Position numbers and translations under genes: made by a program. The notes beneath the pieces were generated by a model. It worked only from the letters and a program-made list of their open reading frames with translations. It was not told where the DNA came from and ran no database searches. From Candidatus Poribacteria bacterium (GTDB lineage: Bacteria > Poribacteria > WGA-4E > JAJDTR01), in NCBI GenBank assembly GCA_965232535.1, contig CBDDPW010000022.1, positions 512,519 through 576,518 of the forward strand: 64,000 nt of DNA, read 5' to 3'. Every line of letters begins with the position of its first letter. Positions within the stretch are counted from its first letter, which is position 1. Positions 3,890 to 58,904 of this stretch are shown here, piece by piece.

Positions 3890-4061
3890 ACGTGCTTTGC
3901 TCGGTGCACGGGAATAGTCCGTGGTATCCTCCGAACCGTGCAAATCCGCGATTTGGGTTTTTATACAAACACTCATGAGTTGGGTTTCACGAAGTTCAAC
4001 CCAACCTACGGACCGAGAAAGAGGGTATCTAACCTTAACCAAAACATACGGAGAATAAGAC

Positions 4062-5569: not shown

Positions 5570-5738
5570 CCAATGGTGCTAGTATATGTAGTATTTAAAT
5601 CATAAATGACATACTATATACTGACACGATGATGTGCGATTATGCGCGGTTGACAAATGTTGCGCCTACCTGATCTGCTAACAACCTAGATATAGTATGT
5701 CATTGAAAATCATGTACCAATTAACTAGCACCAAAGGT
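5569..5738 (+). mobile_element. MITE-like ~170-bp element, copy 2, inserted inside the type IIG RM gene
   Basis: Identical to copy 3 except for 1-2 nt. Flanked by a TATTA direct repeat (5564-5568 and 5739-5743). Removing the element plus one TATTA restores the in-frame sequence GSYYTPREIV. The element supplies an in-frame ATG (5697) and a TTGACA box. Confidence 0.85.
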
Positions 5739-8084
5739 TATTACACGCCGCGCGAGATTGTCAACTACATGACCGATGAATCGCTGATTGCGTACCTGAA
5801 GAATGAATTCATCGCCTATCGTGAATCCGAAAGTGCATTCGCTCCCGCTACGCCGCCCTCACAGATAGATTTCAGCGGACAGACAGAACCCATACAGACT
5901 CAGCTTGATATGGGTACGGTAGTCCTATCCAATGAACAAAAAGAGGCGATAGAGAGCGATCTCCGCGCGCTGATTTCGTACAAAGGTCAGCCGCGCAAAT
6001 TCACTACAGGCGAAACGCAAACCCTGATAAAAGCCATTGACGGGCTAAAGGTTCTCGACCCGGCGTGCGGTTCGGGCGCATTTCCGATGGGCGTACTGCA
6101 AAAACTGGTGTTCGTTCTGGGAAGGCTAGACCCGCGCAACGAGGAGTGGAGACAGCGGCAGATTGACAAAGTTCGACACACCATTAAAACTGCCGAAGAG
6201 ATTGAAGATAGCACGGTACGTGAAAATACTATCCGTGATCTTGAACGCGAAATTGACAACATCAACGACGCCTTCGAGCGGAATGAACTCGACTACGGAC
6301 GCAAACTCTACCTAATTGAAAACTGCATCTACGGCGTGGACATCCAACCCATCGCCGTCCAAATCTCTAAACTCCGCTTCTTCATCTCGCTCGTCGTCGA
6401 TCAGAAGATTGATAGAGAGCGCGAAAATCTCGGCGTGCGTCCCCTGCCCAATTTGGAAACAAAGTTTGTGGCGTCGGACGCCCTAATTGATGTGGAAAAG
6501 CCTACCCAAATCGAGATTCGCAACCCGCACGTTGTGCGTAAAGAGAAGGAATTATCGGAGGTGCGTCGGAAACACTTTACCGCTCGGACGCCCCCAACGA
6601 AGAAAAAGTATCGAGATTTGGACACCGCTCTCCGCTCCGAACTCAGCGAGTTGCTCAAACGCGACGGTTTCCCCGATGACACGACCGAAAAAATCGCATA
6701 TTGGGATCCTTACGACCAGAATACATGCACAGATTGGTTTGATCCGGAATGGATGTTCAATACTAAGAACGGGTTTGATGTAGTGATTGGTAACCCCCCT
6801 TATGTTCAATTACAAAAAAACGGCAGTAAATTAGGGCGTTTGTATGAACCGTGCAATTTTGACAGTTTCACGAAGACAGGGGATATTTACTGTCTGTTCT
6901 ATGAGAAAGCGAATCAGTTGTCAAGAGACGGTGGACATGTCTGTTTTATCACATCCAACAAATGGCTGCTCACCGCATATGGGAAAGCGTTGCGAGATTA
7001 CCTTGTAAGACAAACCCAACCTGTTCAACTACTGGACATGGGACCGGGTGTGTTTGACGCGACTGTGGATACCAACATCCTACTGTTTCAAAACACGGCG
7101 CGCGATCTTCGCGCGACGCTCAGAGCAACAACCATCCGAGCCGACTTTGACGCACATACTGATAACATCGCCCAATATATGGGCAATAACGGTGTGGCGA
7201 TGGAACTACCCCCCAAAGGCAAGCCGTGGACAATCTGCTCTCCAGCTGGACTTGCCCTGAGATACAAGATAGAAGACGTTGGCATACCACTGAAAAAGTG
7301 GGATGCAAAAATCTACTACGGAATAAAAACAGGCTGCAACGAAGCGTTTTTCATAGACGAAGTCAAGCGAGAAGAATTGGTGAAGCAAGACCCGAAATCA
7401 GTCGAAATCATCAAACCACTTCTGCGTGGGCGCGACCTTAAACGCTACCATGTCCATCGGTCACAGTTGTATATGCTAGCAACCGGTTACGATTTAGACA
7501 TTCCAACTAAGTATCCCGCCGTCTACAATCATCTCCAAACATTGGGAAGCCAAATAGAATTGGGGAAGATGAAGGTAAGAGGCAAAGGGCTATTCAATAG
7601 AGATGATCAGGGAGAGAATTGGTGGAACCTCAGAGCTTGTGCATACTATTCCGCGTTTGAAAAAGAGAAGATTATTTATCCCAACATGACTAAGTTTCTA
7701 CCATTCGTTTACGACGTGAGGGGGTTTTATACTAATGATAAGAGTTTTATCATTACAAGCGGAAACTATCTGAAATATCTTACAGGCTATTTTAACTCAA
7801 GAATCGCAGCAAGATGGGTTCGCGAAAACTGCCCGGAATTACAAGGTGGGACGAGAGAATTGAGAAAAGTATTTTTTGAGAATATCCCCATTCCCCGTGT
7901 CACAGAAGCGAACCAACATCTTGTCGCGACGATTGAAGAGCGAGTTGACGGAATTCTCGCCGCTAAACGTACAAATCCAGATGAGGACACAACCGCGCTT
8001 GAAAAAGAGATTGATGAGATAGTATACTCATTGTACGATTTATCGCCTGAAGAAATTGCGATTGTGGAAGAAGCGGTGGATTGA
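5697..8084 (+). CDS. C-terminal fragment of type IIG RM / PglX-like enzyme: complete gamma-class N6-adenine DNA methyltransferase domain plus target-recognition region. The ORF begins at a MITE-provided ATG
   Basis: Carries motif X (GYYTPREIV), motif I (LDPACGSGAFPMGVL) and motif IV (VIGNPPYV). About 450 aa of C-terminal TRD-like sequence follow. It is continuous in frame with the upstream fragment if the MITE is removed. Confidence 0.75.
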   Translation: MSLKIMYQLTSTKGYYTPREIVNYMTDESLIAYLKNEFIAYRESESAFAPATPPSQIDFSGQTEPIQTQLDMGTVVLSNEQKEAIESDLRALISYKGQPRKFTTGETQTLIKAIDGLKVLDPACGSGAFPMGVLQKLVFVLGRLDPRNEEWRQRQIDKVRHTIKTAEEIEDSTVRENTIRDLEREIDNINDAFERNELDYGRKLYLIENCIYGVDIQPIAVQISKLRFFISLVVDQKIDRERENLGVRPLPNLETKFVASDALIDVEKPTQIEIRNPHVVRKEKELSEVRRKHFTARTPPTKKKYRDLDTALRSELSELLKRDGFPDDTTEKIAYWDPYDQNTCTDWFDPEWMFNTKNGFDVVIGNPPYVQLQKNGSKLGRLYEPCNFDSFTKTGDIYCLFYEKANQLSRDGGHVCFITSNKWLLTAYGKALRDYLVRQTQPVQLLDMGPGVFDATVDTNILLFQNTARDLRATLRATTIRADFDAHTDNIAQYMGNNGVAMELPPKGKPWTICSPAGLALRYKIEDVGIPLKKWDAKIYYGIKTGCNEAFFIDEVKREELVKQDPKSVEIIKPLLRGRDLKRYHVHRSQLYMLATGYDLDIPTKYPAVYNHLQTLGSQIELGKMKVRGKGLFNRDDQGENWWNLRACAYYSAFEKEKIIYPNMTKFLPFVYDVRGFYTNDKSFIITSGNYLKYLTGYFNSRIAARWVRENCPELQGGTRELRKVFFENIPIPRVTEANQHLVATIEERVDGILAAKRTNPDEDTTALEKEIDEIVYSLYDLSPEEIAIVEEAVD

Positions 8085-8455
8085 GTAACTGGTATACTGA
8101 TGCGTGAAGAAGGGCAAATCAGATAAAGATGGCGTCACCTTCCATAATCCGTAATTTAGTCAATGGCTAAAAAGACAGGGCACGAGATTGTCTTACGAAA
8201 AGCGATAGCGATACAACGCTAAGGGGATGGAAATAAATAACCTTTCAATATACGCCAAACCGTGCTATGCCCTGCGCTATTAAACCCCCAAAACTGGTGA
8301 AATGTTATTCTTTTCCAGCCCCTAACTGTAGAATTTGCTTGAACAATCTTATCGAGCGCCTCACGTAGTGCGATAGTCAATTGTGATAACGCAGGGAAAA
8401 TCATAGGCACTTGGCAATCGTGTGGTGATACGGCACCGATTGTGGAGGTATCAGT

Positions 8456-11098
8456 ATGAATGAAAGAGAATATGCAGGGGCTAAGTGGTGGAAATTTGAT
8501 TTTCATACTCACACACCTGCCTCGGAAGACTTCAGTCAAAGCGGAGTTTCACCTGAATCTTGGTTGAAAGCATTCATGGATGAGGGAATTGATTGTGTCG
8601 CGATTACCGACCATAACAGCGGCGGCTGGATAGACCACTTGAAGAATAAGTTGCAGGAATTGGCCAGCAGCCAGTCCGATTGGTACCGACCCCTGTATCT
8701 GTTTCCGGGGGTGGAAATCTCAGCAAATGGCAACGTGCATATTTTAGCGATATTTGGACATGAGAAGCATAAGAGCGATATCGATCAGTTGCTTGGTGCG
8801 GTTAGTTATTCGGGGACAAAGGGCAAAAGCGATGCAGTAACGAACACGACCGTTACCGAGGTCGTCAATGCAGTTGCGGAACAGGGAGGTATCCCTATTC
8901 CGGCGCATGCCGACACTGCCAATGGGTTGTTTAAACTGCAAGGACTAACATTGGACAATGCGATGGATAATCCCAACCTCTACGCGATGGAGTTATGCGA
9001 CACCGATTACCAAAAGCCCCAACTGTATACTGACATGAAGGTGCGGTGGACTGAAGTCCGAGGCTCCGATACGCATAACTTCAGCGACAGTGCATTTGGT
9101 ACGTTTACCTGGATTAAAATGGATAAACCTTCCATTAACGGATTGAAGCTAGCGCTGATTGATGGAACCGTCTCCGTTAATCGCAAAATGCACGCTGACC
9201 CCAACCGGCACGCGCCGCACTATCTAGAGGAACTCAAAATATGCAAAGCAAAACACATTGGCCGTACAGAGCCCCTCAATTGCAGATTTAGCCCCTTTCT
9301 TAACGCTATAATTGGTGGACGCGGAAGCGGTAAGTCCACATTGGTGGAATTCATGCGCCTAAGCCTGCAGCGCGTTGCGGAACTTCCGGAGTCACTAGAA
9401 AAAGGAACCCGTCAGTATTTTGATGTGAAGGAGGTTAACAGCTTACTGATTGAGAACAGCACGATTTCGCTAATCTATCGCAAAGGTGAGGTGCGGTACC
9501 GGTTGAAATGGTCAGCCGAAGCGGGTAGCACCTCTTTGGAGGAGGAAAAAGATGGCATTTGGAAACCTAGCCCCGGAGAAATACATTCGCTATTTCCTGT
9601 ACGAATTTATAGCCAGAGGCAAATCCTTGAACTAGCAAATGATACAGGCGCGCTGATTCAAGTTATTGATGAAGCGCCCGAAGTTGACTCTTGGACGTTT
9701 AAGACACAACACACGGATTTGGTCAACCAGTACAAACAGATTGAAGGTGAACAAAGAGAACTGAAGCATAAAATTTCCCACGAAAATCGGCTACAAGGAG
9801 AGTCAAACGACCTCGCACGGCAGATTGAGCAAATAGAAAAATCTGGGCACGAGGCTGTACTGCGAAATTTTAGTAAACGGCAGAGGCAGTTAAGCGAGAT
9901 TGACAGCTTGGAAGGAAAATGGAAAGAGATGAGTTGTCGTCTTGCTGACACGCTGCATGACATTACCCCGGCGCATTTCGATAAGCAGCATTTTGCCGAC
10001 GATACCGATATTCTTTCGGTTTTACAAAAAACAAACGAAAAATGGCAAACGATTCAAGACCAATTAGACCAATTGGTACAAGACGCTCAATTATCTATTC
10101 ACAACTGGAATACTGAAAAGAGTGCTGCAGACTGGATGCGACGCCTCAAGACAGATATGAAAAAGTACGAGTCTTTGTCCTCGGAAATGAAACAGCATAA
10201 TATTGATCCACAGCAGTACCCTTGGCTATTGACGAAACAGAAAAGTATACAGACGGAATTGAATCTCATTGCCGATTATCGTTCGCAGTGGCAAGAATTG
10301 GAACATGCGAAGAAACAAGTGTACAACCAGATAAATACAAACAGAACGAAGCTCTCGCAAAAAAGGAAAGAATTTCTAACGCGTGTTCTACGCGATAACT
10401 CTTCGGTCAGCATTGAAGTCAATCCGTTTGGCGAAGATTGGGGCGGCGAACACGGTATAGAAGAAGAGATCCGTAGAATATTACAATGCCAAGATGGCTT
10501 CGAAAAAGATATTGATGCCCTGAAAGAGGTTTATCTACGGGACGGTGGTGGAAAGGTTGAAGAACTCAAAACGGCAGTTAAAGATATTCGCGATGAAAAG
10601 CTGGCTGCCAAAGATAACCGCTTTACCCGACGTTTGCAGAACTTACCTCAAGAATCAATGATTGATTTCATCTTGTGGTTTCCCGAGGATGATTTGAAAG
10701 TTACCTTTGGCCCCAGAAATCAGCACATAGAACAGAGTTCTCCGGGACAGAAAACCGCCGCGTTGTTAGCATTTATCCTTTCCTACGGAGATGAGCCACT
10801 GTTGCTCGATCAACCTGAAGATGATTTGGATAACGAATTAATCTACAAGTTGGTTGTCAAACAGTTGCGAGGAATGAAAAGCAAAAGGCAGATTATCATC
10901 GTTACGCACAACGCCAACATAGTAGTCAACGGCGATGCGGAGATGGTTCTACCGCTTCAGGTCGGCGGTGGTGAAACCCACGTAAGGCGGGCTGCGAGCA
11001 TTCAGGAAAAAGATGTCCGGGAATCCATATGCGAAATTCTGGAAGGGGGGCGACACGCATTTGAAGAGCGCTATAAACGTATTCATTTGGGAACTTAA
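8456..11098 (+). CDS. PHP-domain phosphoesterase fused to Rad50/SbcC/SMC-like ABC ATPase (880 aa; Ppl-like defence protein)
   Basis: The N-terminus (WWKFDFHTHTPASEDF...VAITDHN...PAHADT) is a PHP metal-dependent phosphoesterase fold. A Walker A follows (IIGGRGSGKSTLVEFM). Then comes a ~400-aa coiled-coil-like insertion. The C-terminus has an ABC signature-like SSPGQKTAALLAFIL, a Walker B/D-loop LLLDQPEDDLD and an H-loop IIIVTHNAN. RBS GGAGGT lies upstream. Confidence 0.8.
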   Translation: MNEREYAGAKWWKFDFHTHTPASEDFSQSGVSPESWLKAFMDEGIDCVAITDHNSGGWIDHLKNKLQELASSQSDWYRPLYLFPGVEISANGNVHILAIFGHEKHKSDIDQLLGAVSYSGTKGKSDAVTNTTVTEVVNAVAEQGGIPIPAHADTANGLFKLQGLTLDNAMDNPNLYAMELCDTDYQKPQLYTDMKVRWTEVRGSDTHNFSDSAFGTFTWIKMDKPSINGLKLALIDGTVSVNRKMHADPNRHAPHYLEELKICKAKHIGRTEPLNCRFSPFLNAIIGGRGSGKSTLVEFMRLSLQRVAELPESLEKGTRQYFDVKEVNSLLIENSTISLIYRKGEVRYRLKWSAEAGSTSLEEEKDGIWKPSPGEIHSLFPVRIYSQRQILELANDTGALIQVIDEAPEVDSWTFKTQHTDLVNQYKQIEGEQRELKHKISHENRLQGESNDLARQIEQIEKSGHEAVLRNFSKRQRQLSEIDSLEGKWKEMSCRLADTLHDITPAHFDKQHFADDTDILSVLQKTNEKWQTIQDQLDQLVQDAQLSIHNWNTEKSAADWMRRLKTDMKKYESLSSEMKQHNIDPQQYPWLLTKQKSIQTELNLIADYRSQWQELEHAKKQVYNQINTNRTKLSQKRKEFLTRVLRDNSSVSIEVNPFGEDWGGEHGIEEEIRRILQCQDGFEKDIDALKEVYLRDGGGKVEELKTAVKDIRDEKLAAKDNRFTRRLQNLPQESMIDFILWFPEDDLKVTFGPRNQHIEQSSPGQKTAALLAFILSYGDEPLLLDQPEDDLDNELIYKLVVKQLRGMKSKRQIIIVTHNANIVVNGDAEMVLPLQVGGGETHVRRAASIQEKDVRESICEILEGGRHAFEERYKRIHLGT

Positions 11099-11100
11099 CC

Positions 11101-12321
11101 ATGTTTGACAGCCTGACTGAACTCCGTGAGAAAATATTCCTGGGTGAGGACTCAATGATTGAGTTCAAGAGAGAGTTGCCCGAACGAAAAGAACTCTCCG
11201 ATGAGATGGCGGCTTTCGCTAACGACCGTGGCGGGGTGATACTCATCGGTGTTGAAGATAACGGCGGCATCGTCGGGATTGATCGCGAGAGCTTGGAAAG
11301 GGTTGAGAAAACGGTGGTTGAAATATGCCAAGACAGCATCGATCCGCCGGTTCACATTGTGACGGAGAAGTTGTGCATTGACGAGAAGAACCTGATAAAA
11401 ATTGATGTGTCTCGCACCCCGTTTGTGCATCGATCAGCCAACGGTTATTTCATCCGTCAGGGCAGCACCAAGAGAGAGATGACCACCGAGCAGTTAGGGC
11501 GATTGTTACAAAATCGTTCGCAAGTGCATCGTATGGCTTTTGATGAACAGTTCGTGCCGAACACTCACAGAGACACATTGAGCAGATCGCTTTATCAGCG
11601 GTTTATAACCCCTGGCGTGGCTGAAGGCGAAGAGGAGAACCTGCTCCTTAAGCGGCGTTTGCTTGTCAAGGAAGGCGAGAATTACCGAGCATCCGTCGCC
11701 GGGGTGTTGATGTGTCATCACAAACCCGATGATTACCTCTATAATAGTTTCATTCAGGCGGTCTATTACAATGGCGTGGAAAAGGATGCCAACTACCAGA
11801 TTGACGCCAAGGATTTCAAGGGACCGCTGGATGAACAAATTGTGGACGCCTTCAAATTCGTTGAAAAGCACAACCAAGTGTCCGCGCGAAAGGAGATTGG
11901 CAGAATCGAGCGGCCGCAGTACAGCATGAGAGCCGTTTTTGAGGCAGTCGTTAATGCCGTCGTACACAGAGATTACTCAAAAGCTGGCTCAAAAATTCGA
12001 CTGTTTATGTTTGCGGATCGGCTGGAGCTTTATTCGCCCGGTGCGTTGGGGTACACCTTGACTGTGGAAGATTTGCCCTATAACCAAGCGACCCGTAATG
12101 AGCTCCTTGCCCGGCTACTTTCGGAAACGACGCTTGAGGACCATCTGGCAACTAAGACAACCCGGCGCCACTTTTTGGAACGCCGCGGCGAGGGCGTCGG
12201 TATCATTCTGAACGAGAGCGAGAGACTGAGCGGTAAAACGCCGGTATACGAGGTGTTTGGCGAAGAATTACGCTTGACAATCTTCGCGGCGGAATCTTTG
12301 CAAGACGACATTGCTGTCTGA
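11101..12321 (+). CDS. AlbA_2 (Schlafen-like divergent AAA) + HATPase_c_4 domain protein (putative DNA-binding / RecG-C-terminal-like ATPase)
   Basis: Starts 2 nt after the upstream stop, so it is translationally coupled. The N-terminus (IEFKREL..AFANDRGGVILIGVEDNGGIVGI) is an AlbA_2 fold. The C-terminus (AVVNAVVHRDYS...IRLFMFADRLELYSPG) is the HATPase-like module typical of this family. Confidence 0.8.
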   Translation: MFDSLTELREKIFLGEDSMIEFKRELPERKELSDEMAAFANDRGGVILIGVEDNGGIVGIDRESLERVEKTVVEICQDSIDPPVHIVTEKLCIDEKNLIKIDVSRTPFVHRSANGYFIRQGSTKREMTTEQLGRLLQNRSQVHRMAFDEQFVPNTHRDTLSRSLYQRFITPGVAEGEEENLLLKRRLLVKEGENYRASVAGVLMCHHKPDDYLYNSFIQAVYYNGVEKDANYQIDAKDFKGPLDEQIVDAFKFVEKHNQVSARKEIGRIERPQYSMRAVFEAVVNAVVHRDYSKAGSKIRLFMFADRLELYSPGALGYTLTVEDLPYNQATRNELLARLLSETTLEDHLATKTTRRHFLERRGEGVGIILNESERLSGKTPVYEVFGEELRLTIFAAESLQDDIAV

Positions 12322-12351
12322 ACTGTGATTTTTGTGATGAAGTGATGGACT

Positions 12352-12738
12352 ATGATTAAAGAGGAGTATAAGTATTCGGCGTTGACGGAAAAAGTGATTG
12401 GCTGTGCCATGCGGGTACATTCTAAGTTAGGCAGTGGATTTCAGGAAGTAATCTATCAGAGGGCATTAGCGCTCGAAATGGCTGCTCAAAAAATTCATTT
12501 CAGTCGTGAGCATGAGATGCCTGTCTACTACAGAGAGCAACAAATTGGCACGCGAAGAGCCGATTTCTTGATAGAGGGCGTTGTCTCCGTCGAATTGAAG
12601 GCTATTATCCAACTGGATGACATCCACCTGGCGCAAGCAATCAACTATCTGGAGGCGTACAATCTGGAGGTTGGGTTGCTAATCAACTTTGGCGCACGAA
12701 GCCTTGAATTCAGAAGAGTTACGAACACAAAACTTTAA
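12352..12738 (+). CDS. GxxExxY family protein (small PD-(D/E)xK-like nuclease-fold protein)
   Basis: 128-aa ORF with KVIGCAMRVHSKLGSGFQEVIYQRAL...ADFLIEGVVSVELKAI, the hallmark GxxExxY motif region. Confidence 0.75.
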   Translation: MIKEEYKYSALTEKVIGCAMRVHSKLGSGFQEVIYQRALALEMAAQKIHFSREHEMPVYYREQQIGTRRADFLIEGVVSVELKAIIQLDDIHLAQAINYLEAYNLEVGLLINFGARSLEFRRVTNTKL

Positions 12739-12801
12739 TCAACAAAATCATGGCAATCACCATAATCTCATGAATCACAGTTCAGACAAAGGGAAAAAAC
12801 C

Positions 12802-15800
12802 ATGGCAGAAAACACCTCACTATTCCCTTCCGGTATTCGTGATAACCGCCATCGCGGCACGGTCGGCAGATTCCTGCAGGACTATATCAAAGACGGATCG
12901 TCACTCTCTATCGTCTCAGCCTACTTCACGATTTACGCCTTCGACGCCTTGAGATCGTCTTTGCTCGGAATCAATGACCTTCGCTTCCTCTTCGGCGAAC
13001 CGCGATTCATCAACCGGTTAGATCCCGAAAGAACGGAAAAGAAATCATTCATCATAGACAGCGGCGGCTTGCAGTTGACGAACCAGCTTGAACTCAAGCG
13101 GGTGGCAAGGGAATGCGCCGCGTGGATTGAAGACAAGGTCGAGATTCGCTCAATCCAAAAGGAAAACCTGCTGCACGGCAAGATGTACCACATCGACGAT
13201 ACCAACCGGGAACACGCGATTCTCGGTAGTTCCAACTTCACCGTGCGCGGCTTGGGATTGGGCGAAAGTGAAGGCAACATCGAACTCAATTTGAAGGTTG
13301 AGGACAACCGGGATGTTACCGACCTGAAACAATGGTTTAACGAACTGTGGTATGACGAGAAACAGGTCGTGGATGTTAAGGATGAAGTGTTGTCCTACCT
13401 TAATCAACTCTATGAGAATTACGCGCCGGAGTTCGTCTACTACAAGACGCTTTATCATCTCTTTGAGCGGTACTTGAGCGATCAGGAGGGGTGGGGCCTG
13501 CTGGACACACCGCCGCAACTCGTCGACACGCAAATCTGGAACGCGCTCTACGGTTTCCAGAAGGACGGCGTAAAAGGGGCAATCAACAAAATCCTGACGC
13601 ACAACGGCTGTATTATCGCAGACAGCGTCGGCTTGGGAAAGACATACGAAGCCCTTGCGGTGATAAAATACTTTGAACTGCGCAACGAAAACGTGCTGGT
13701 GCTATGTCCCAAGAAACTACGAGAGAACTGGACCATCTACCCTGCATATACGGGCAACACACTCAATCCCTTCCCAAATGACCGCTTCGGCTATACCGTT
13801 CTCTCGCATACTGACCTGAGCCGGGCGGACGGCATGTCGGGGGATGTGGATCTGTCGTCGTTCAATTGGGGTAATTACGGTCTGGTGGTTATTGACGAGT
13901 CGCACAATTTCCGAAACAACACCCCCGGAAAAAAAGATCGGGACGGCAACCTGATACGCTTGAGCCGCTACAAACGGCTGATGGATGACATTGTCAAGAG
14001 CGGCGTAAACACCAAGATGCTGTTGCTGTCCGCGACGCCGGTCAACAACGATCTACGCGATCTGCGCAACCAACTTTACTTTCTTACAGAGGAACGCGAC
14101 GACGCTTTCAAGGATTCACTCGGCGTCGCCAATCTGAGAGAAACCATCTCAAGCGCCCAAACCGCCTTCAACAAGTGGGCAAAGCAGGAGGGGACGCGCA
14201 GCAGCCAGAATCTGCTGGAAGAACTGAGTACCCACTTCTTCAGACTGCTTGACGGTTTGACCATCGCGCGGTCGCGGAAGCAAATTCAAAAATACTACCC
14301 CGACTCGATGAGAGAATTGGGCGGCTTCCCGAAACGCGGCAAGCCCGAATCCATCTATACCAAAATAGATCTCAAGGATGAGTTCCTGTCTTACGACGCG
14401 CTGAACGATGAGATTTCCGAGTATCAACTGTCGCTCTACAATCCGACCAAATATCTCCGACCCGAACACGAGTCCGAATACAACTTGGAGTTGGTAAAAA
14501 ACTTTACGCAGATTGACCGTGAGCACTTCCTGATTGGCATGATGAAGGTAAACTTCCTCAAACGCTTGGAGAGCTCCGTCCACTCCTTCAAGATTACGCT
14601 GGAGCGTACGCTTGATAAGATTGAAAAGTTGGAGGAACGTATCCGGCGGTTTCAGGAGTTCCGCGACGAAAACCCCGACCTCGATCCGGCGGAGATGGAG
14701 ATTGACGCCGGTGATGACGAAGACCTGCAAGCGGCTTTGGAGGTGGGGAAGAGCCTGAAATTCAAGACGGCGCACCTTGACGTGGAGCGGTGGTTGGAGG
14801 ATTTGCGGCAGGACAGAGAACAGCTTGAGCGCCCCCTCCGCTCCGCGGAAAAAGTCAACCCGGCCCGTGACGCAAAGCTCACCAGACTGAAGCAGTTGAT
14901 TCGAGAGAAAGTTAAGAATCCTTCAACCACCAAGCGTGGAACTCTAAATCGAAAGGTATTGGTATTCACCGCCTTTGCGGATATCGCCGACTACCTCTAC
15001 GGGGAGTTGCATGAATGGGCGCAGACGGAATTGGGCATCCGTACCGGGATGGTGACGGGGGGCACCATGCCCAACAGAACCACCCTGGGCAAAACCAACT
15101 TTGTCGACATCCTTACCAATTTCTCGCCAATTGCGAAGAACCGGAGCAGCGATAGGGAAATGCTTCAGGACGAGGAAATAGACCTACTCATCGGCACGGA
15201 TTGTATCTCGGAAGGCCAGAACCTGCAAGACTGCGACTACCTGATCAACTACGACATCCACTGGAATCCGGTGCGCATCATTCAGCGCTTCGGACGGATT
15301 GACCGTATTGGAAGCGTCAACAACCGAGTTCATTTAGTGAACTTCTGGCCCACCCCCGACCTGAATCGTTACATCAACCTGAAAAATCGGGTTGAAGCGC
15401 GGATGGCGCTGGTGGATGTCACGGCTGCGCAGGGAGATAACCTGCTTGACCCCGACGCGCTCTCCGAAGCCATTGAAGGGGACCTCAAATACCGCGACCA
15501 ACAACTCCTGAAACTTCAAGAGGAAATCCTTGACCTTGAAGAGTTTGACGAAAACGTCTCCCTCAACGAGTTCACGCTTGACGATTTCCGTATGGAACTC
15601 ATCAGGTACATCGAAAGCAACAAAAAGAAACTTGAGGAGGCGCCTTTCGGGCTTTACGCCGTTGTGCCTCCGCCCGCGGGAGATCCGATAATTAAACCCG
15701 GTGTTATCTTTTGCCTCAAACAGAAATCGAAGTCGGAGGAGAACGAAAAGTTGAATCCGACCCATCCCTACTTCCTGGTCTACGTTCGAGAGGAAGGCGT

Positions 15801-16206
15801 CGTGCGGTTTACGTTTGCCCAGCCGAAGCAAATCCTTGAGATGTACCGTCAATTGTGTGAGACGAAGACCAGTCCGTATGACGAACTCTGTGCGTTGTTC
15901 GATGAACACACGGAAAACGGCGCCGACATGTTGGGTTACGACAAACTACTCCGGGAAGCCGTTAAATCCATTTCGCATACCTACGAGAAGCGCGCTTTCA
16001 CCAATCTTCGATCCGGTCGCGGCGGGGTATTGCCGCTCGAATCCGAGCAGGTTGGCGACACGACGGATTTTGAGTTAGTGACGTGGTTGGTGATTAAGGA
16101 CGAATCGTCTCCCATGAAGCTGAATGAGCTTCTGGATCAAGTGACAGAGTACAATATTCATGGCGAAGTTGACACCGGTTCTCCGGTGGGGCGTGAAGAA
16201 TGGTAA
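12802..16206 (+). CDS. PLD-family nuclease / SNF2-family helicase fusion with MazE-like antitoxin C-terminal tail (1134 aa)
   Basis: N-terminal HKD motif (HGKMYHIDD...GSSNFT). SNF2 motifs: I GLGKTYEAL, II VIDESHNFRN, III LLSATPVNN, V/VI QRFGRIDRIGS. The last ~45 aa (PMKLNELLDQVTEYNIHGEVDTGSPVGREEW) closely resemble the C-terminal half of MazE/PemI antitoxins (..[28 protein letters not shown]). Confidence 0.85.
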   Translation: MAENTSLFPSGIRDNRHRGTVGRFLQDYIKDGSSLSIVSAYFTIYAFDALRSSLLGINDLRFLFGEPRFINRLDPERTEKKSFIIDSGGLQLTNQLELKRVARECAAWIEDKVEIRSIQKENLLHGKMYHIDDTNREHAILGSSNFTVRGLGLGESEGNIELNLKVEDNRDVTDLKQWFNELWYDEKQVVDVKDEVLSYLNQLYENYAPEFVYYKTLYHLFERYLSDQEGWGLLDTPPQLVDTQIWNALYGFQKDGVKGAINKILTHNGCIIADSVGLGKTYEALAVIKYFELRNENVLVLCPKKLRENWTIYPAYTGNTLNPFPNDRFGYTVLSHTDLSRADGMSGDVDLSSFNWGNYGLVVIDESHNFRNNTPGKKDRDGNLIRLSRYKRLMDDIVKSGVNTKMLLLSATPVNNDLRDLRNQLYFLTEERDDAFKDSLGVANLRETISSAQTAFNKWAKQEGTRSSQNLLEELSTHFFRLLDGLTIARSRKQIQKYYPDSMRELGGFPKRGKPESIYTKIDLKDEFLSYDALNDEISEYQLSLYNPTKYLRPEHESEYNLELVKNFTQIDREHFLIGMMKVNFLKRLESSVHSFKITLERTLDKIEKLEERIRRFQEFRDENPDLDPAEMEIDAGDDEDLQAALEVGKSLKFKTAHLDVERWLEDLRQDREQLERPLRSAEKVNPARDAKLTRLKQLIREKVKNPSTTKRGTLNRKVLVFTAFADIADYLYGELHEWAQTELGIRTGMVTGGTMPNRTTLGKTNFVDILTNFSPIAKNRSSDREMLQDEEIDLLIGTDCISEGQNLQDCDYLINYDIHWNPVRIIQRFGRIDRIGSVNNRVHLVNFWPTPDLNRYINLKNRVEARMALVDVTAAQGDNLLDPDALSEAIEGDLKYRDQQLLKLQEEILDLEEFDENVSLNEFTLDDFRMELIRYIESNKKKLEEAPFGLYAVVPPPAGDPIIKPGVIFCLKQKSKSEENEKLNPTHPYFLVYVREEGVVRFTFAQPKQILEMYRQLCETKTSPYDELCALFDEHTENGADMLGYDKLLREAVKSISHTYEKRAFTNLRSGRGGVLPLESEQVGDTTDFELVTWLVIKDESSPMKLNELLDQVTEYNIHGEVDTGSPVGREEW

Positions 16207-16553
16207 GACCAACCAACTACGTTCCACGACGCGGTGATGCGGTGTGGGTTGACTTCAATCCTCAAGCCGGGCACGAGCAAGCGGGACGGCGTCCTGCCGT
16301 TGTACTATCACCAGAGTCTTATAACAGCACCGTAGGTCTGGCAATTCTGTGCCCAATTACCAGTAGAGTGAAGGGGTATCCTTTTGAGGTTACAATCCCA
16401 GCCGGGCTAGATGTAAATGGGGTTATTCTTGCGGACCAACTCAAGAGCGCGGATTGGCGTGTGAGAAATGCGGAGTTGATATGTTCTTTGCCCATGACCA
16501 CAGTTGACACAGTTTTGCAGAGAGTCCAAACGCTCTTAGGAAGAGATGGTTAA
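16200..16553 (+). CDS. mazF: MazF/PemK-family type II toxin endoribonuclease
   Basis: Has VPRRGDAVWVDFNPQAGHEQAGRRPAVVLSP...LCPITS, the MazF/Kid signature. The ATG overlaps the helicase stop (ATGGTAA), the classic antitoxin-toxin overlap geometry. Confidence 0.85.
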   Translation: MVRPTNYVPRRGDAVWVDFNPQAGHEQAGRRPAVVLSPESYNSTVGLAILCPITSRVKGYPFEVTIPAGLDVNGVILADQLKSADWRVRNAELICSLPMTTVDTVLQRVQTLLGRDG

Positions 16554-16689
16554 CTATTTGGCTCAAGTAACAAATCAAGGTGTTTTCAAGGTCGTTGGGT
16601 GCGCCGACAGAACGTGCTGTGGTAGCATCTCATCATTCCTTTCGGGATGATTCATTCAGCAAGCACCACTCGTTTTTCAATCCTCGGTT

Positions 16690-17557
16690 AGCTTTGAAAA
16701 AGCGTTCCTTAATAGCGCGCCATTATCCCTGTCGGAATAATTCTTTCAGCAAGTAACTACCTCACATTTCCATGTAGGAGGGGCATCTTGCCCCGACGGT
16801 TTGTCTATAGCGCACATTATCCTTGGCGGAATAATTCTTTCAGCAAGTAACACTCATCTTCGGATCTATGACAGGCTTTGGGGAGGTGTTCCTTCGTAAA
16901 ATGCTTTTCACTCCAGAGGATCAAGCGACTGAATAGGGAGCGCGATAGTAAATCCTATGCAATGTCAATAGAATCGCGGTGTCTCCCAATCTCCGCGCTC
17001 CAGCGGAGCGCAATGTGTCTAGCGCATCATCAAGTGTCACTCATATTTCGTTCTATGGCTAGCTCTGAAAAAGTGTTACTTGGTAGCGCCCCATTATCCC
17101 TGTCAGGATAATTCATTCAGCAAGTAACACTCATTTTTCGCTCTATGACAGGTTTTGAAAAAGCGTTCCTTCGTAGAATGGTTTCACTCCAGAGGAGTGA
17201 GATGTCAATAGAACACGATTCCCCATCGCGTCTGCACTCCAGAGGAGTGCAATGTGGAGTGTTACTTGAGAGCGTGCCATTATCCCTGTCGCGATAATTC
17301 TTTCAGCAAGCAACACTCTTGTACCGCAAACTGTCAGTTTGTGATCACAATTCATCAGCGGTACACGTTCATTTTTCGCTCTATGGCTGGCTTTCCGAGA
17401 GTGTTACTTGATAGCGCGCCATTATCCCTGTCGGAATAATTCTTTCAGCAAGCAACACTCTTGTACCGCAAACTGTTAGTTTGCGATCGCAATCCATCAG
17501 CGGTACACGTTCATTTTTCGCTCTATGACTGGCTTTCCGAGAGTGTTACTTGATAGG
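16690..17557. repeat. array of nested palindromic REP/MITE-like units (family A: GTGTTACTTG-N-CCATTATCCCTGTCGGAATAAT-N-CAAGTAACAC), including two tandem ~142-bp composite units (17269-17556)
   Basis: Full family-A units occur at 17073-17130, 17269-17316 and 17401-17458. Degenerate copies lie at 16718-16776 and 16806-16853, and a truncated copy at 17540-17556. The units are interleaved with other palindromes (CACTCCAGAGGAGTG, CAAACTGTCAGTTTG, GCGCTCCAGCGGAGCGC). The spacers are not unique. Confidence 0.8.
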
Positions 17558-18547
17558 TCATAATTGGGTTAGCGAATCCGCTCCGCTTAGGAATCCTTCA
17601 ATCCACGGGCGTACCCGCTCGCGCATACCTCCAAGATCGTGGAGATGCAGCCACAGCGTCATGCCCCGGAGGTAGGCGAGCCTGAGATGTGCGGGGAGAG
17701 CGCTTCGTTCCTCTTCTGTTAAAGGACAAACCGCCTCGTAAGCTTCAAGGAAAATAGACTTTTGCTGGGGCGTTAAAGGAGTGTCTTGGTAAACGGAGGG
17801 GAAGAAGACCAAGGCGTACGCGAGATCGTAGGCACGGTTGGCGGGTCGTGCGGAGTCGAAATCCAAAATAGCTTTCACTTTTCCCTCGGCATCGAATTTC
17901 AAATTTTGTGCGCGATAGTCGCCGTGGATAATCCAGTCTCCGTCGTCCGACTCGGAGATTTCCGCCGCCAATCTTTCCACTTCCCCCATCCATTCATCAA
18001 TCCGATTCCGCGATACGGGATACCCGTCAGCTTCCGACGCGGCGATACGTATCCGTTCAAGCCGCAGGCGCAGCAGATTGATAACCTCCTCGTGCATAGG
18101 TAGCCACTTGAAGCCGACCGTTGGTTGAAAGCCCTGCAATTTTCTGTGAATGCGTCCCAGGGTTTCGCCCGCGGAATGCAGCGCTCCAATCGGTTGTGCA
18201 ACGTCGTAACCCTGTCCTTCCACGAATTCAAAAATCGCGTAGATGTCGCTTCCTTCAACCGATAGCGTGTCGCCGTCACGATTTCGGAGGAGGCGAGGGA
18301 TAGAGAACTCCGGTTTCCCAAGATATTCCTGTACCGCATGGGTGAAGGCGATGCGGGGGATGTGCATTGACGGGCTGAGGTCAAGGTCGGATGCAGGTTT
18401 ATAGCGTTTTAGAAACAGTTTTCCCTGATCGGTATTGAGCGCCATTGTGGAACTCATGGCGCCTGTACCTATCGGGACAGCGGTGGTAACCTCTAGTCCG
18501 TAGTGTTGGTGGATATTTTCCTCTTGCTGAGGCGAAAGCGATTCCAT
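17558..18547 (-). CDS. phosphotransferase-family (APH/choline-kinase fold) protein kinase-like enzyme
   Basis: 329-aa ORF with the catalytic HGDYRAQNLKFD (HGDxxxxN) and a downstream DFDSA (DxD) motif of aminoglycoside/homoserine-kinase-type phosphotransferases. Confidence 0.8.
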   Translation of the reverse strand: MESLSPQQEENIHQHYGLEVTTAVPIGTGAMSSTMALNTDQGKLFLKRYKPASDLDLSPSMHIPRIAFTHAVQEYLGKPEFSIPRLLRNRDGDTLSVEGSDIYAIFEFVEGQGYDVAQPIGALHSAGETLGRIHRKLQGFQPTVGFKWLPMHEEVINLLRLRLERIRIAASEADGYPVSRNRIDEWMGEVERLAAEISESDDGDWIIHGDYRAQNLKFDAEGKVKAILDFDSARPANRAYDLAYALVFFPSVYQDTPLTPQQKSIFLEAYEAVCPLTEEERSALPAHLRLAYLRGMTLWLHLHDLGGMRERVRPWIEGFLSGADSLTQL

Positions 18548-18667
18548 TTGTTTGGGCGTTTACCTCAATTTAACGACTTCTCGCGATATTTTCAATCGTA
18601 GCGAAATCGTTGTCAAGTTTTAATCGAGATTGATTTCGCTTTGGTGATGGAGATTGTGCCAAAAAGG

Positions 18668-18700
18668 AATGGTGAGCCGTGCCCACCCTACTACAAGCAA
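18668..18700. repeat. REP-B family variant (AATGGTGAGCCGTGCCCACCCTACTACAAG)
   Basis: Matches the AATGGTGGGCAGTGCCCACCCTACA.. consensus seen at 51893 and 59066. Confidence 0.5.
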
Positions 18701-18743
18701 TACGCATCTGATTTTGCATTGACAACTTTACACGTGTATAGTA

Positions 18744-18913
18744 ACCAATGGTGCTAGTATATGTAGTATTTAAATCATAAATGACATACTATATACTGAC
18801 ACGATGATGTGCGATTATGCGCGGTTGACAAATGTTGCGCCTACCTGACCTGCTAACAACCTAGATATAGTATGTCATTGAAAATCATGTACCAATTAAC
18901 TAGCACCAAAGGT
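18744..18913 (+). mobile_element. MITE-like ~170-bp element, copy 3
   Basis: Full-length copy flanked by a TAGTA direct repeat (18739-18743 and 18914-18918). Same TIRs as copies 1 and 2. Confidence 0.85.
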
Positions 18914-19117
18914 TAGTATGATAAGGAACGGACTAATAAGTTGCGGAGTGGATGCGCTACTCTTCAAATTGCCGATTTCCCGTGTTCGAACGGGGCGGCG
19001 CTTCGGCTTCGCGCGTACTTAAAAACCTGTTTGAAATGCCGTTTCGAGTAAAATCATGCGTGTCGAAACCGAGTTTTTTCTTCAAAACTTGGTTTCTTTC
19101 TCGCACAATTCTGTAGG

Positions 19118-19245
19118 ATCAACCGACTGAATAGGGAGGGCGATAGAGATCCTTCAACCGACTGAATAGGGAGGGATCAAGTGAGTGAATAGCGAACGCG
19201 ATAGAGATCCTTCAACCGACTGAATAGGGAGGGCGATAGAACTCC
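19118..19245. repeat. tandem ~35-bp repeats (TCAACCGACTGAATAGGGAGGGCGATAGAGATCCT), 3.5 units with one nested variant unit
   Basis: Head-to-tail units with no spacers. Related single units lie at 16919-16952, 19770-19838 and 27440-27476, and in reverse orientation at 33181-33198 and 58911-58975. Confidence 0.7.
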
Positions 19246-19699
19246 CCTGCGCACCTGACAAATCGTGCGTTTCAAACAGGCTTTAAGAGTGACCTTTATG
19301 GCGACGAACTTTTTTTCTGTTAACATCTTGTTCACATTTGCTTACCTATGGACCCACGCTATCAAAGGAAAGTACTGAATCAAACCATGTGAACACCCTC
19401 TTGAAATCATGCCTCCGTTCACATTTTTGTACCTATATTTTGGGGAATTTTACAAGAGAAATAGGTACAAGTTCAGCCGAAAACGTCCGAAATGGGTAGT
19501 AGATCGGCATTTTGTTCACATTTTCGAGTTCTTGAGCGACAGAACAAGGGGCAATCAAAGGACCGTGAACATCTACTGATTTTATACACCTTCCACTCCG
19601 ATGATGTTGTAGTGTGAAGGGCCCATGAAGCCGCAAACAGCCGCCATGGTTAGTTTGAACGCGAGGCCGATGAAGTGATTTCAGATGCTTTTTCCTATA

Positions 19700-20165
19700 G
19701 AGCATGCCATTATCCCTATTGGAATACTTCTTTCAGCAAGTAACTGCCTCACATTTCCATGTAGGAGGGAATCAAGCGAACGGATAGTGAGTAATCAAGT
19801 GAATGGATAACGAACGCGATAGAGCTCCCATAAAGATCTTCTTGCCCCGACGGTTTGTCTATAGCGCACATTATCCTTGGCGGAATGATTCCCTCATCAA
19901 GCGACACTCAACTCTCGCTCTGTGACTGGTTCCGAAAGAGTGTTACTTGGTAGCGTACCATTGTCCCTGTCGGAATAATTCTTTCCACAAGTAACATTCA
20001 CGGGTAAAGGTTCTTAGCCCCAGCGGGGCGGCAGGTGTATAGAAAACCGGAATCCCATAGAAACCTAGCCCCAGAGGGGCGACACGTGTATAGAAATCGA
20101 GAGTGTTACTTGAGAGCGTGCCATTATCCCTGTCGGGATAATTCTTTCAGCAAGTAACACATATG
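19700..20165. repeat. second cluster of family-A palindromic units, with a segmental duplicate of 16718-16860 and 42-bp tandem hairpin repeats
   Basis: 19706-19905 duplicates 16718-16860 with a ~70-bp insertion inside the GGGGCATCTTGCCCC hairpin. Family-A units lie at 19938-19997 and 20103-20160. Tandem TAGCCCCAG(C/A)GGGGCG..TGTATAGAAA units lie at 20015-20100. Confidence 0.7.
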
Positions 20166-20229
20166 CTACAATAATGAGGTTTGGTTTAGGCATTGCAAAG
20201 ACGGAAATTTTCTTGGTGTTTGTAAACCC

Positions 20230-20418
20230 GCTTGAGAGCGTCGTCCGGGTTATGCATGTTTTGTTCATTGGTGGACGCAAGCAAGATTCCCTTTCATGGG
20301 ATTTACTGCTTTGGTACCCCGTTTGGTAGACTAGAGATTCGAAGCATAACCCCGCCTGAACCGGTTTTGAAACCCATGTTGTATATTCCGAACCCTATCT
20401 CGGCAAGGAGAACTCGCC
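20230..20418 (+). ncRNA. candidate structured non-coding RNA in the IS110 5' region (possible bridge/seek RNA)
   Basis: Non-coding sequence directly upstream of the IS110 recombinase. It has a long-range 9-bp stem (CGGGTTATGC 20245-20255 / GCATAACCC 20344-20352) and further local hairpins. IS110-family recombinases are known to use an element-encoded guide RNA. No homology test was possible. Confidence 0.2.
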
Positions 20419-21825
20419 ATGAAAAGACGGCGTAAAACCGGCATTTCGAGAAAAGGACGATTCAAAGAACGTCCTCCTACCCAAGAGATTCAAGACGTGA
20501 ACGCTCTTGAACAAATAAATTATAACGCGGCAGGTCTCGACATCGGAGACGCTGAAATTTATGCCGCTGTCCCTGAAGGACGAGATAAAGACTGTGTGCG
20601 AGTCTTTAAGACTTTTACCGAAGACCTCCATCTCTTAGTGGATTGGTTACAGCATTGTTGCGTGACCACGGTGGCGATGGAATCAACAGGTATCTACTGG
20701 CTTCCAATCTATGAAATGCTTGAAGCACGCGGCTTTGAAGTGTATCTGGTGAATGCGCGTCATATTAAAAACGTTAGCGGTAAGAAGACTGACATCGAAG
20801 ATTGTCAATGGATACAGCAGTTGCATACCTATGGGCTGCTTTCGACTTCATTCCGCCCGGCTGAAGAGATTTGTGCCTCGCGCTCATTGGTGAGACATCG
20901 AGCCAATCTAATCGCTATGTGCTCGACACAAGTGCAGCATATGCAGAAGGCATTGCAACTGATGAATCTTAAGCTGACCAACGTCATCTCAGACATTACC
21001 GGTTTGACAGGCATGCGTATCATCAGAGACATCGTCAAGGGTGAACGCGATGCCCACCAATTGGCAGCCCATCGTGATGAGCGATGTACCAAAAGTGAAA
21101 AAGAGATTCGCAAATCTCTTGAGGGCAATTACAAGTCCGAACATGTGTTCGCCCTCAAGCAAGCGTTGCAAGCCTACGATTTTTATCAGCAGCAAATCAG
21201 CGATTGTGATGTAGAAATCGAAAAGTTTTATCAGAGGATTGAACCCCAGATTGACATCAAAGCGCACCCATTGCCGGAGAGTCAAAGAAAGCGGCGGCGT
21301 CCAAAGGGGAATGAGCCCTGTTTTAATTTGCGTCAACATCTGTATCAACTGAGCGGGGTAGATCTCACTCAGATTGAGGGAGTCAATGTGCTCAATGCAC
21401 AAGCGATATTGAGTGAAATCGGCATCGATATGAGCAAATGGCCTTCAGTCAAACATTTCACCTCCTGGCTGGGTTTATGTCCGAACAACCAAATCACGGG
21501 TGGCAAAGTGATGCAGCGTCAAACGCAGAAAAACAACAATCGTGCGGCACGCGCTCTGAGGCTGGCGGCGCAAGGCGTGTCAAATAGCAAAGGCGCCCTC
21601 GGCGGTTATTATCGTCGTCAGCGAGCGAGGCTCGGTCCTGCTCAAGCCATCACGGCAATCGCTCATAAACTCGCACGTATTATCTATGCCATGTTGAGAA
21701 ATCGGACGCCCTACCGTGAACCTCCTTCCGGCTACTATGAAGAACAGGCTCGCCAAAGGGCGGTTAAAAACCTGAAACGCAAAGCCAATCAGTTGGGATT
21801 TCATTTGGTTGCACAAGCAGCTTAA
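20419..21825 (+). CDS. IS110-family transposase/recombinase (DEDD N-terminal domain + Transposase_20 C-terminal domain)
   Basis: LDIGDAEIYAAV..., MESTGIYWLPIYEMLEARGFEVYLVNARHIKN and a C-terminal ...WLGLCPNNQITGGK... are IS110-family hallmarks. The N-terminal 30 aa of the 468-aa ORF are probably 5' UTR, so the true start is likely internal. Confidence 0.9.
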   Translation: MKRRRKTGISRKGRFKERPPTQEIQDVNALEQINYNAAGLDIGDAEIYAAVPEGRDKDCVRVFKTFTEDLHLLVDWLQHCCVTTVAMESTGIYWLPIYEMLEARGFEVYLVNARHIKNVSGKKTDIEDCQWIQQLHTYGLLSTSFRPAEEICASRSLVRHRANLIAMCSTQVQHMQKALQLMNLKLTNVISDITGLTGMRIIRDIVKGERDAHQLAAHRDERCTKSEKEIRKSLEGNYKSEHVFALKQALQAYDFYQQQISDCDVEIEKFYQRIEPQIDIKAHPLPESQRKRRRPKGNEPCFNLRQHLYQLSGVDLTQIEGVNVLNAQAILSEIGIDMSKWPSVKHFTSWLGLCPNNQITGGKVMQRQTQKNNNRAARALRLAAQGVSNSKGALGGYYRRQRARLGPAQAITAIAHKLARIIYAMLRNRTPYREPPSGYYEEQARQRAVKNLKRKANQLGFHLVAQAA

Positions 21826-22014
21826 ATCGGTTTTCCCATCTACGAAATTGAGGTGAAATCGAATTGTCGAAAACGCCTTCCAACACGCTTATTTTGTTAG
21901 TGTTACTTGGTAGGTTATCTATATCTGTTGATTCACGCACGTCCTTTGATGTATGATGAGGAAAACGATCAATTTGGCGATGCTCATTTTTTTGTGAACG
22001 TTAAATTTACGTAG

Positions 22015-24036
<2,022 letters not shown>

Positions 24037-27379: not shown

Positions 27380-27575
27380 TACCATTTCTCTTGAATAACA
27401 GTGCGTATCATGTCTGAATCATATCGTTCACTTTCTACGTAGGCGGGGATCAAGTGACTGAATAAGGAACGCGATAGAGATCCCATCTTGCCCCGCCTTG
27501 AAAGAACTTGATTGACGCTATTAATGCACTGCGAATGTAGAGAAATGGTATAACATCTTGGGTAGTGGAGAGTAC

Positions 27576-33020: not shown

Positions 33021-33223
33021 TTCGGCAATGCCTTCGGTGTTAAAGCGGGTTTGAATATAGTTGCATAGTAATGCGTGCACATTTGAGTTGTTATCACTTG
33101 TGAGATTTCGGTAGCATTCGTAATTAGACGCTCCTATTGCACTTGTTTGGGAAGATTTTTAAGGCATATCTATTGCGCCCGCTATTCACTCGCTTGATCG
33201 CAACGAGCATACTCTGAAAAACT

Positions 33224-33238
33224 GTGGGCAGTGCCCAC
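33224..33238. repeat. REP-B family partial copy (GTGGGCAGTGCCCAC)
   Basis: Core palindrome of the AATGGTGGGCAGTGCCCACC family. It is preceded at 33181-33198 by a reverse-oriented ATCAAG-CGAGTGAATAGC unit. Confidence 0.5.
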
Positions 33239-33281
33239 CTTACAACTTATTTGGCCCCATTTGTTCGCTTGGCTGGTCATT

Positions 33282-51730: not shown

Positions 51731-51892
51731 CCGGTTTCATCTGTAAAATTTTTCACGTTCGCGTTGAGATTCTGTTTGAAGAATAGGTGGCAAACCAATC
51801 TTAGGTCATTTGAATTGGGATATACTCATAAATTCTATCGCACAAGTATCTCTATTGCCCTCCTTTATCGGTCGGTATCGCACCTGACAAGG

Positions 51893-58846: not shown

Positions 58847-58904
58847 ACGCGCCGGCGCCCTATCGGATCTCTACCGCCTTGGGATCTATATAGGAGTTCT
58901 ATCG

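Follow-up and report, generated by a model that had tools for sequence, protein, structure and literature searches.

Three near-identical copies of a 170-bp MITE in a Poribacteria-like bacterium carry the ends of IS982-like insertion sequences and were probably mobilised in trans

A 170-bp MITE is present in three copies in the 64,000-nucleotide stretch of DNA analysed here (hereafter the window). Its terminal inverted repeats (TIRs) are very probably those of a widespread group of ∼900-bp IS982-like insertion sequences, a transposase of which would have moved it in trans. We infer both the mobilisation in trans and the existence of an active transposase copy in the source genome. The window is chromosomal, containing ligA, infB, pnp, gcvTHP, trkAH and nuoGH, and the named best matches of its PNPase are all from Candidatus Poribacteria (73–75% identity). 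The three copies, with the parts of the element at their positions in copy 3, are located as follows.

2061–2230, minus strand: MITE copy 1, 170 bp, intergenic between groES and dsrm; no difference from copy 3
5569–5738, plus strand: MITE copy 2, 170 bp, within a type IIG restriction-modification gene; one C>T change
18744–18913, plus strand: MITE copy 3, 170 bp, between an APH-family kinase gene (17558–18547, minus strand) and a repeat-rich spacer
18744–18758, plus strand: left TIR ACCAATGGTGCTAGT of copy 3, with equivalent positions in the other copies; fits ACCWWTGGTGCTAGT
18899–18913, minus strand (read on the minus strand): right TIR ACCTTTGGTGCTAGT of copy 3
18780–18794, plus strand: inner inverted repeat arm 1, AATGACATACTATAT, element positions 37–51, pairing with 122–136
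18865–18879, plus strand: inner inverted repeat arm 2, element positions 122–136

In a three-way alignment copies 1 and 3 are 100% identical and copy 2 is 99.4% identical to them, with a single C/T difference, and the identity begins and ends precisely at the inverted ends. An earlier note, made from the sequence alone, had listed three non-coding copies that were >97% identical. All three are present, the start of copy 1 being 2061 rather than 2060, and no ORF of 20 aa or more lies fully within the element. The same note described imperfect 15-bp TIRs, and the ends are indeed as it gave them, the left and right repeats agreeing at 13 of 15 positions. When the TIR 15-mer was searched against the window with up to three mismatches, six matches were found, all of them element ends; 1.06 were expected, and six were reached in none of 100 shuffles. 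Further or degenerate copies of the MITE were not detected in the window by sensitive blastn, the plasmid and phage collections contained no blastn match to it, and a MITE-specific 24-mer had no matches in the JGI metagenomes. The inner 15-bp inverted repeat allows a long hairpin to form over the whole element. The predicted folding energies are −48.7 and −55.4 kcal/mol for the RNA of the two strands (z = −4.4 and −5.5, respectively) and −24.5 kcal/mol for the DNA, with z-scores of −4.0 to −5.5 across the folds.

Bacterial MITEs, exemplified by Correia of Neisseria and Nezha of cyanobacteria, are small, have TIRs, target-site duplications (TSDs) and hairpin potential, and occur as near-identical copies in or near genes. 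The window element is likewise short, lacks a transposase gene, and has TIRs, TSDs with matching empty sites and near-identical dispersed copies. In addition, its ends are common to autonomous elements that encode a transposase. Its end sequences and duplication rule differ from those of Correia and Nezha.

Related strains or genomes contain unoccupied sites for all three copies; the loci of the nearest deposited strain and its relatives were obtained through identical GroES and RimP proteins. These sites hold a single TATTAA, TATTA and TAGTA, respectively, and the TSDs of copies 1, 2 and 3 are therefore 6, 5 and 5 bp. The 5-bp flanking repeats reported in the earlier note are thus correct for copies 2 (TATTA) and 3 (TAGTA), while the repeat at copy 1 is the 6-bp TATTAA defined by the empty site in locus L129.

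2055–2060, no strand assigned: copy 1 TSD, left, TATTAA (written on the plus strand); single TATTAA in L129
2231–2236, no strand assigned: copy 1 TSD, right, TATTAA; single TATTAA in L129
5564–5568, no strand assigned: copy 2 TSD, left, TATTA; in L107 one TATTA, in GGCTCCTATTACACGCC
5739–5743, no strand assigned: copy 2 TSD, right, TATTA; in L107 one TATTA
18739–18743, no strand assigned: copy 3 TSD, left, TAGTA; one TAGTA in L132 and L133
18914–18918, no strand assigned: copy 3 TSD, right, TAGTA; one TAGTA in L132 and L133

The site of copy 1 is empty in L123, L127 and L129, where window position ∼2059/2060 is joined straight to ∼2229/2230; in L129 the flanks are identical to those in the window. 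At L107, which is more distant, the intergenic sequence had diverged too far for this site to be aligned. That locus does, however, contain the empty site of copy 2 within the syntenic order groEL-groES-dsrm-methyltransferase-type IIG gene-SNF2/PLD. Window positions 4034–5568 and 5739–7677 align to L107 positions 9973–11457 and 11453–13391, respectively, and the 5-bp overlap of the two flanks is the single TATTA. For copy 3, window positions 17541–18743 and 18914–19000 correspond to 3959–5164 and 5160–5246 of L132. The same empty site is found in L133, the window flanks overlap by 5 bp in both strains, and the unoccupied sequence reads CTGTATAGTATGATAAGG. A TA-only duplication, of the IS630/Tc1-mariner type, was considered and rejected, as it leaves the gene interrupted by copy 2 out of frame and the empty sites display 5–6 bp.

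These empty sites prove that the three copies are true insertions, arising through transposition and not segmental duplication, an alternative that the earlier note had itself raised. Descent of the copies by segmental duplication, gene conversion or an assembly artefact might be entertained on the grounds that all of them are found within 17 kb of a repeat-rich, hypervariable part of the window. Its probability is, however, negligible: it is already refuted by three orthologous sites that are precisely empty and retain one copy of the repeat. Moreover, each copy has unique flanks and its own 5–6-bp direct repeat, the shared sequence stops exactly at the inverted ends, and unrelated genomes hold elements with the same ends and duplication rule (see below).

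Transposition of the MITE also appears to have been recent, as the earlier note proposed. Among deposited contigs, the closest to the window (ENA ERZ25069412, ctg853796_17x_l) shares 98.8% identity with it over 21.5 kb and, judged by its sequence, is from a close strain. That it is nevertheless a different strain explains why the kinase, the DUF6599 protein and LigA had no exact-protein match. Flank identity to the near-identical strains is 98–99% for copy 1 and ∼92% for copy 3, and both sites are empty in these strains; copy 2 was compared with more distant relatives only. As copies 1 and 3 are absent from close strains they are specific to the strain of the window, and therefore recent. The 99.4–100% identity of the three copies, together with the empty sites of copies 1 and 3, thus supports recent movement of the MITE. 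No MITE copy was found in ∼260 kb of related sequence (L106, L107 and L120–L133). In L123, from a conspecific strain, a 38-nt stretch (709–746) that lies downstream of a Schlafen gene matches positions 11–48 of the MITE, in its left subterminal part, with 82% identity. This stretch was ruled out as a MITE copy as it has no adjacent inverted ends; a remnant, a source for the core of the MITE and a chance similarity are all conceivable. The data document very recent transposition in an uncultured Poribacteria-like bacterium, with the element, its ends, its duplication rule and the empty sites all defined, and illustrate that insertion polymorphism between near-identical strains can be resolved with long-read metagenomes.

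Copy 2 is located in a hypervariable defence island, where it divides a type IIG restriction-modification gene in two and is predicted to knock it out.

4175–8084, plus strand: type IIG restriction enzyme/methyltransferase gene, interrupted by copy 2; Pfam Eco57I and TaqI_C

The gene is now present as two ORFs (4175–5569 and 5697–8084). Removal of copy 2 and one TATTA restores a 1244-aa ORF, in which the junction reads ...KLTGSYYTPREIVNYM..., and the repaired protein has more than 100 full-length homologues displaying 50–71% identity. Ten full-length homologues aligned with the 1244-aa protein are colinear with it, with no gap across TGSYYTPREIVNYM, and the intact homologue P0121 is classified by PADLOC as REase_MTase_IIG. 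The neighbours of the type IIG gene encode a Ppl-like ATPase, a Schlafen/AlbA protein, a PemK toxin and an HKD+Snf2 helicase. The predicted loss of the enzyme would illustrate concretely how mobile elements remodel a defence island.

The island itself, which extends from 4175 to 16553 in the window, downstream of groES-dsrm-methyltransferase, differs in content in all ten strains with an identical GroES. At this location L122–L131 instead hold TIR-domain proteins, IS3 and IS4/IS5-like elements and other type IIG variants.

The other two insertions are intergenic. Copy 1 is located between groES and the dsrm-domain gene, upstream of the latter and 3′ of a conserved TTGAGT-N17-TATAAT motif, while copy 3 precedes the start of the APH-family kinase gene by 197 bp. 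It is conceivable that the MITE serves first of all as a structured RNA or regulatory module (a small RNA, terminator or promoter cassette), with a function for which its spread was selected. The strong hairpin described above is consistent with this proposal, as are the five marginal sigma-70-like sites detected between 18600 and 19050, where 1.0 was expected, four of them within the MITE. Furthermore, the ATG that the earlier note placed at the right end is present at 18872 and reads out across that end. In copy 2 its frame continues into the 3′ part of the interrupted gene, such that the 795-aa ORF at 5697–8084 starts within the MITE. Hairpin potential is, however, inherent to any inverted-repeat element, and the promoter-like sites all score a marginal 9/12, none facing outward near an end. 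The TTGACA box that had been described as outward-facing in fact sits at 18825–18830, 83 bp inside the right end, and a consensus scan revealed no −10 partner. The contexts and orientations of the three copies share nothing, one copy destroys a gene, and the ATG frame ends after 22 codons at copy 1 and within the TSD at copy 3. The in-frame ATG at copy 2, a single instance, is most simply a coincidence. Rfam returned no match at any threshold, whether the MITE was searched with a permissive E-value or the whole window at the gathering score, and there are no tRNA genes in the window. A primarily regulatory element is therefore highly unlikely.

The earlier note had called for a parent element with the same TIRs, and such a parent exists as a family. 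A scan of one genome per species (596 Gb) with the end pattern ACCWWTGGTGCTAGTWWWT returned at least 105 loci. By our own estimate ∼140 chance matches to this 19-mer pattern are expected in 596 Gb, and many of the unpaired matches may therefore be fortuitous. At 40 of the at least 105 loci, in contrast, a homologue of one 261-aa protein adjoins the match. Among the loci listed, 43 non-redundant elements, a total that counts the three window copies, possess an inverted second end; 30 of these are 873–919 bp in length and 13 are 116–411 bp. The full-length elements (873–919 bp) contain a single ORF of 261–269 aa, their DDE transposase being 261–265 aa in length. For example, the element at 1883–2780 of L067, from a Competibacteraceae MAG, is 898 bp long with one 261-aa ORF, its stop codon 4 bp from the right end. 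Elements with the same ends are found in at least six phyla. Among the hosts are Competibacteraceae and Methylococcales within the Gammaproteobacteria, Dehalococcoidia, Anaerolineae and Chloroflexia within the Chloroflexota, and members of the Acidobacteriota, Latescibacterota, Calditrichaceae and Poribacteria.

The invariance of the ends across phyla arises in part by construction, as the loci were retrieved with that end pattern. A control for this ascertainment was provided by elements retrieved through the protein clusters P0249, P0250 and P0243 (loci L108–L116). These carry ACCTTTGGTGCTAGT at every end that is within the contig, except for the right end of L112, which has two mismatches. 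The right TIR of the MITE is identical to both ends of the elements in L001, L067, L109–L111 and L113–L116, and the left TIR conforms to ACCWWTGGTGCTAGT, the sequence found at the ends of the ∼900-bp IS982-like elements. Overall the MITE ends agree with those of the 261-aa-transposase elements at 15–16 of 16 bases. Beyond the terminal 16–20 bp the MITE core shows no similarity to the full-length elements; as the core matches none of them, internal deletion of an insertion sequence is no more than a possible origin of the MITE. A single full-length element was encountered in the Poribacteria MAGs (L001), and it is a pseudogene with a frameshift.

The duplications provide a second link between the MITE and these elements. 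Perfect direct repeats of 5–7 bp flank 30 of the 43 paired elements (5 bp in 19, 6 bp in ten and 7 bp in one), most of which are TAnTA or TAnnTA. A further 11 of the 43 share only TA, yet a TAnTA-like sequence stands on both sides, as would be expected after recombination between copies. The window TSDs TATTA, TAGTA and TATTAA conform to the TA-anchored rule of the ∼900-bp elements. The MITE is thus tied to its parent as a family, because the ∼900-bp IS982-like elements share both its ends and its duplication rule. In the proposed mechanism, a transposase from a full-length element that is elsewhere in the genome, or was recently present, would bind the two ACCWWTGGTGCTAGT ends and insert the MITE at a TA-rich TA-N(1-3)-TA site by staggered cleavage, and repair of the stagger would duplicate 5–7 bp.

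The transposase itself, as the earlier note had stated, is not encoded in the 64-kb window (tblastn, best E = 1.5), and tblastn also failed to identify it in the ten groES loci of related strains. This gives some room for mobilisation by a different enzyme, either the IS110-family transposase encoded at 20419–21825 or one of the IS630, IS5 or IS1 type encoded elsewhere, particularly as the IS110-family element is 0.8 kb from copy 3 and likewise strain-specific. IS110-family elements are generally devoid of TIRs and rely on a DEDD enzyme. The ORF at 20419–21825 is of this kind (DEDD_Tnp_IS110), while the MITE has clear inverted ends that match those of a DDE-transposase element. The duplications of 5–6 bp at the empty sites are also a misfit with both IS630 (TA only) and IS5/Harbinger-type (3-bp TTA/TAA) transposition. 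Set against the near-complete agreement of the MITE ends with those of the 261-aa-transposase elements, and the common duplication rule, a different transposase is very improbable as the mover of the MITE, and an enzyme of the IS982-like group remains the preferred candidate.

The 261-aa transposase matches Pfam PF13612 (DDE_Tnp_1_3) at 30.5 bits, compared with a gathering score of 27. Its top named match is the NCBIfam IS982 model (NF033520), although the scores of 53–71 bits (E = 5e-14 to 1e-19) are below the curated cut-off of 130. A tblastn search of plasmids returned genes annotated as 'IS982 family transposase' that display 22–28% identity, with coverage of up to 99%. Alignment with two canonical IS982 transposases showed that an N-terminal D.I..L.C..DD motif, two Asp residues and the Glu of a (V/I)ETV motif are conserved, while the new group is ∼25 residues shorter between the second Asp and the Glu. 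A phmmer-type search, with the repaired Poribacteria pseudogene as the seed, retrieved 3,239 clusters at E ≤ 1e-10. These are mostly on ∼1-kb contigs, as expected since repeats break short-read assemblies, and none of the best 120 of the 3,239 clusters is on a long contig that can be linked to the source genome. A relative on a Deinococcus plasmid (42% identity) was discarded, being a pseudogene with different ends (ACCAGTTGTGCGGG).

Members of the IS982 family are about 1 kb in length with a single ORF, have termini that begin with AC and generate duplications of 3–9 bp. The putative parents of the MITE display the corresponding features, namely ACC...GGT ends, 5–7-bp duplications, a length of ∼0.9 kb and a single ORF. 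They resemble the canonical IS982 copies in Acinetobacter lwoffii pALWEK1.1 and in a Salmonella India plasmid, which are ∼0.9–1 kb with a single DDE ORF that ends near the right inverted repeat. The canonical copies end in ACCTGAG...CTCAGGT, and the putative parents also begin with ACC. The Acinetobacter copy is flanked by TATTTA/TATTTA, a 6-bp TA-rich repeat that is comparable to the TA-rich duplications of the parents. The parents differ, however, in their inverted repeat, which is ACCWWTGGTGCTAGT rather than ACCTGAG..., and in their shorter and distantly related transposase. On the basis of sequence, therefore, the parents are a divergent IS982-like group. These transposases are missed by current NCBI naming models, and the conserved 15-bp end offers a simple search handle for annotating what is a large and poorly annotated group.

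MITEs derived from an IS982-family element have previously been described: MITECca01 and MITECca02, from the Cardinium endosymbiont of Oedothorax gibbosus, derive from ISCca4 (PMC9769881). Like the window MITE, MITECca01/02 (∼240 bp) are short and non-coding, have inverted repeats that closely resemble the ends of an IS982-family element, and are lineage-specific; their maintenance has been attributed to the parental transposase (PMC9769881). There is, however, no sequence relationship between these elements and the window MITE, whose host is a Poribacteria-like bacterium and whose parent belongs to a far more divergent IS982-like group with ACCWWTGGTGCTAGT ends. In addition, intact ISCca4 coexists with MITECca01 (PMC9769881), whereas the parent of the window MITE was not found in the 64-kb window. 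No paper on MITEs in Poribacteria, or on the end sequence GGTGCTAGT, was found in the literature searched. The window MITE is thus a new family of a known kind, IS982-derived MITEs having already been described in Cardinium. The novelty claimed in the earlier note also holds only at the level of the MITE itself because diverged copies of it occur in other Poribacteria MAGs. These comprise a 170-bp element in L026 that is 91% identical to the window MITE, with a TTATA duplication, and a related 159-bp MITE in L031 with a TATTA duplication. The finding leaves unchanged what is known of how MITEs work.

Short elements with the same ends (116–617 bp) occur in several Chloroflexota and Poribacteria, which suggests that the IS group gave rise to MITEs repeatedly in Chloroflexota. 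A wider interpretation, which we consider possible but hold with considerable doubt, is that the ∼900-bp ACCWWTGGTGCTAGT-ended elements constitute an undescribed, phylum-spanning IS982-like subgroup with TA-set duplications, a repeated origin of MITEs and an ongoing burst. In this interpretation the length of the duplication (5, 6 or 7 bp) seems to depend on the two flanking TA dinucleotides and not on a fixed stagger, and MITE-like short derivatives appear to have arisen repeatedly, at 11 loci in Chloroflexota and Poribacteria. If it were true, the three strain-specific insertions would represent an ongoing burst that is concentrated in a hypervariable defence island and is switching off a type IIG restriction-modification enzyme.

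Individual short elements with ACCWWTGGTGCTAGT ends were also observed at 3450–3662 of L011 and 6813–7025 of L088, both from Chloroflexota CFX11. Others are in L047, L055, L079, L084 and L005. The elements at these seven loci span 116–258 bp, and some have TA-rich duplications.

The window contains several other repeats and mobile elements. An IS110-family element of ∼2.2 kb, with its DEDD_Tnp_IS110 ORF, occupies 19703–21911. It is absent from conspecific strains, as window positions 19285–19702 and 21912–22999 are contiguous in L132 (5267–5685 and 5684–6772, respectively) and also in L133, and so is a second strain-specific insertion in the vicinity of copy 3. Hairpin repeats of 54–78 nt, with a unit of roughly GTTACTTGATAGCGCGCCATTATCCCTGTCGGAATAATTCTTTCAGCAAGTAAC, are present in at least seven copies at 16631–17540 and 19692–20183, and include a 142-bp tandem pair at 17257–17540. 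One of these repeats straddles the junction at the left of the IS110 element, whose non-coding left part contains two more; the family could be an IS110 target or part of an IS110 non-coding RNA region. Repeats of ∼35 nt (GGATCAACCGACTGAATAGGGAGGGCGATAGAGATCC), partly in tandem, are located at 19096–19266, with others at 16918–16977, 27427–27504 and 58892–58949 (inverted), and the motif is also found in the Poribacteria-related loci L025 (∼6420–6480) and L107 (∼14145–14231).

A 33-nt hairpin with the core GGTGCGGTTTCCAACCGCACC occurs at 2321–2353 and 19065–19098 in the window. At least nine copies are found at 20142–20733 of L107, four of them at a regular spacing of 186 bp, and the hairpin could be a REP-like element or a periodic array. 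The palindromic motif GGTGGGCAGTGCCCACCCTAC is located downstream of genes at 18654–18705, 33192–33245, 51879–51930 and 59038–59103, one copy scoring as terminator-like (18671–18687, minus strand). Finally, a 1492-aa ORF at 54357–58835 consists mostly of 66-bp (22-aa) and 63-bp tandem repeats, with 11 in-register 66-bp units at 54530–55489, and the GC skew of the window is reversed over 54–58 kb.
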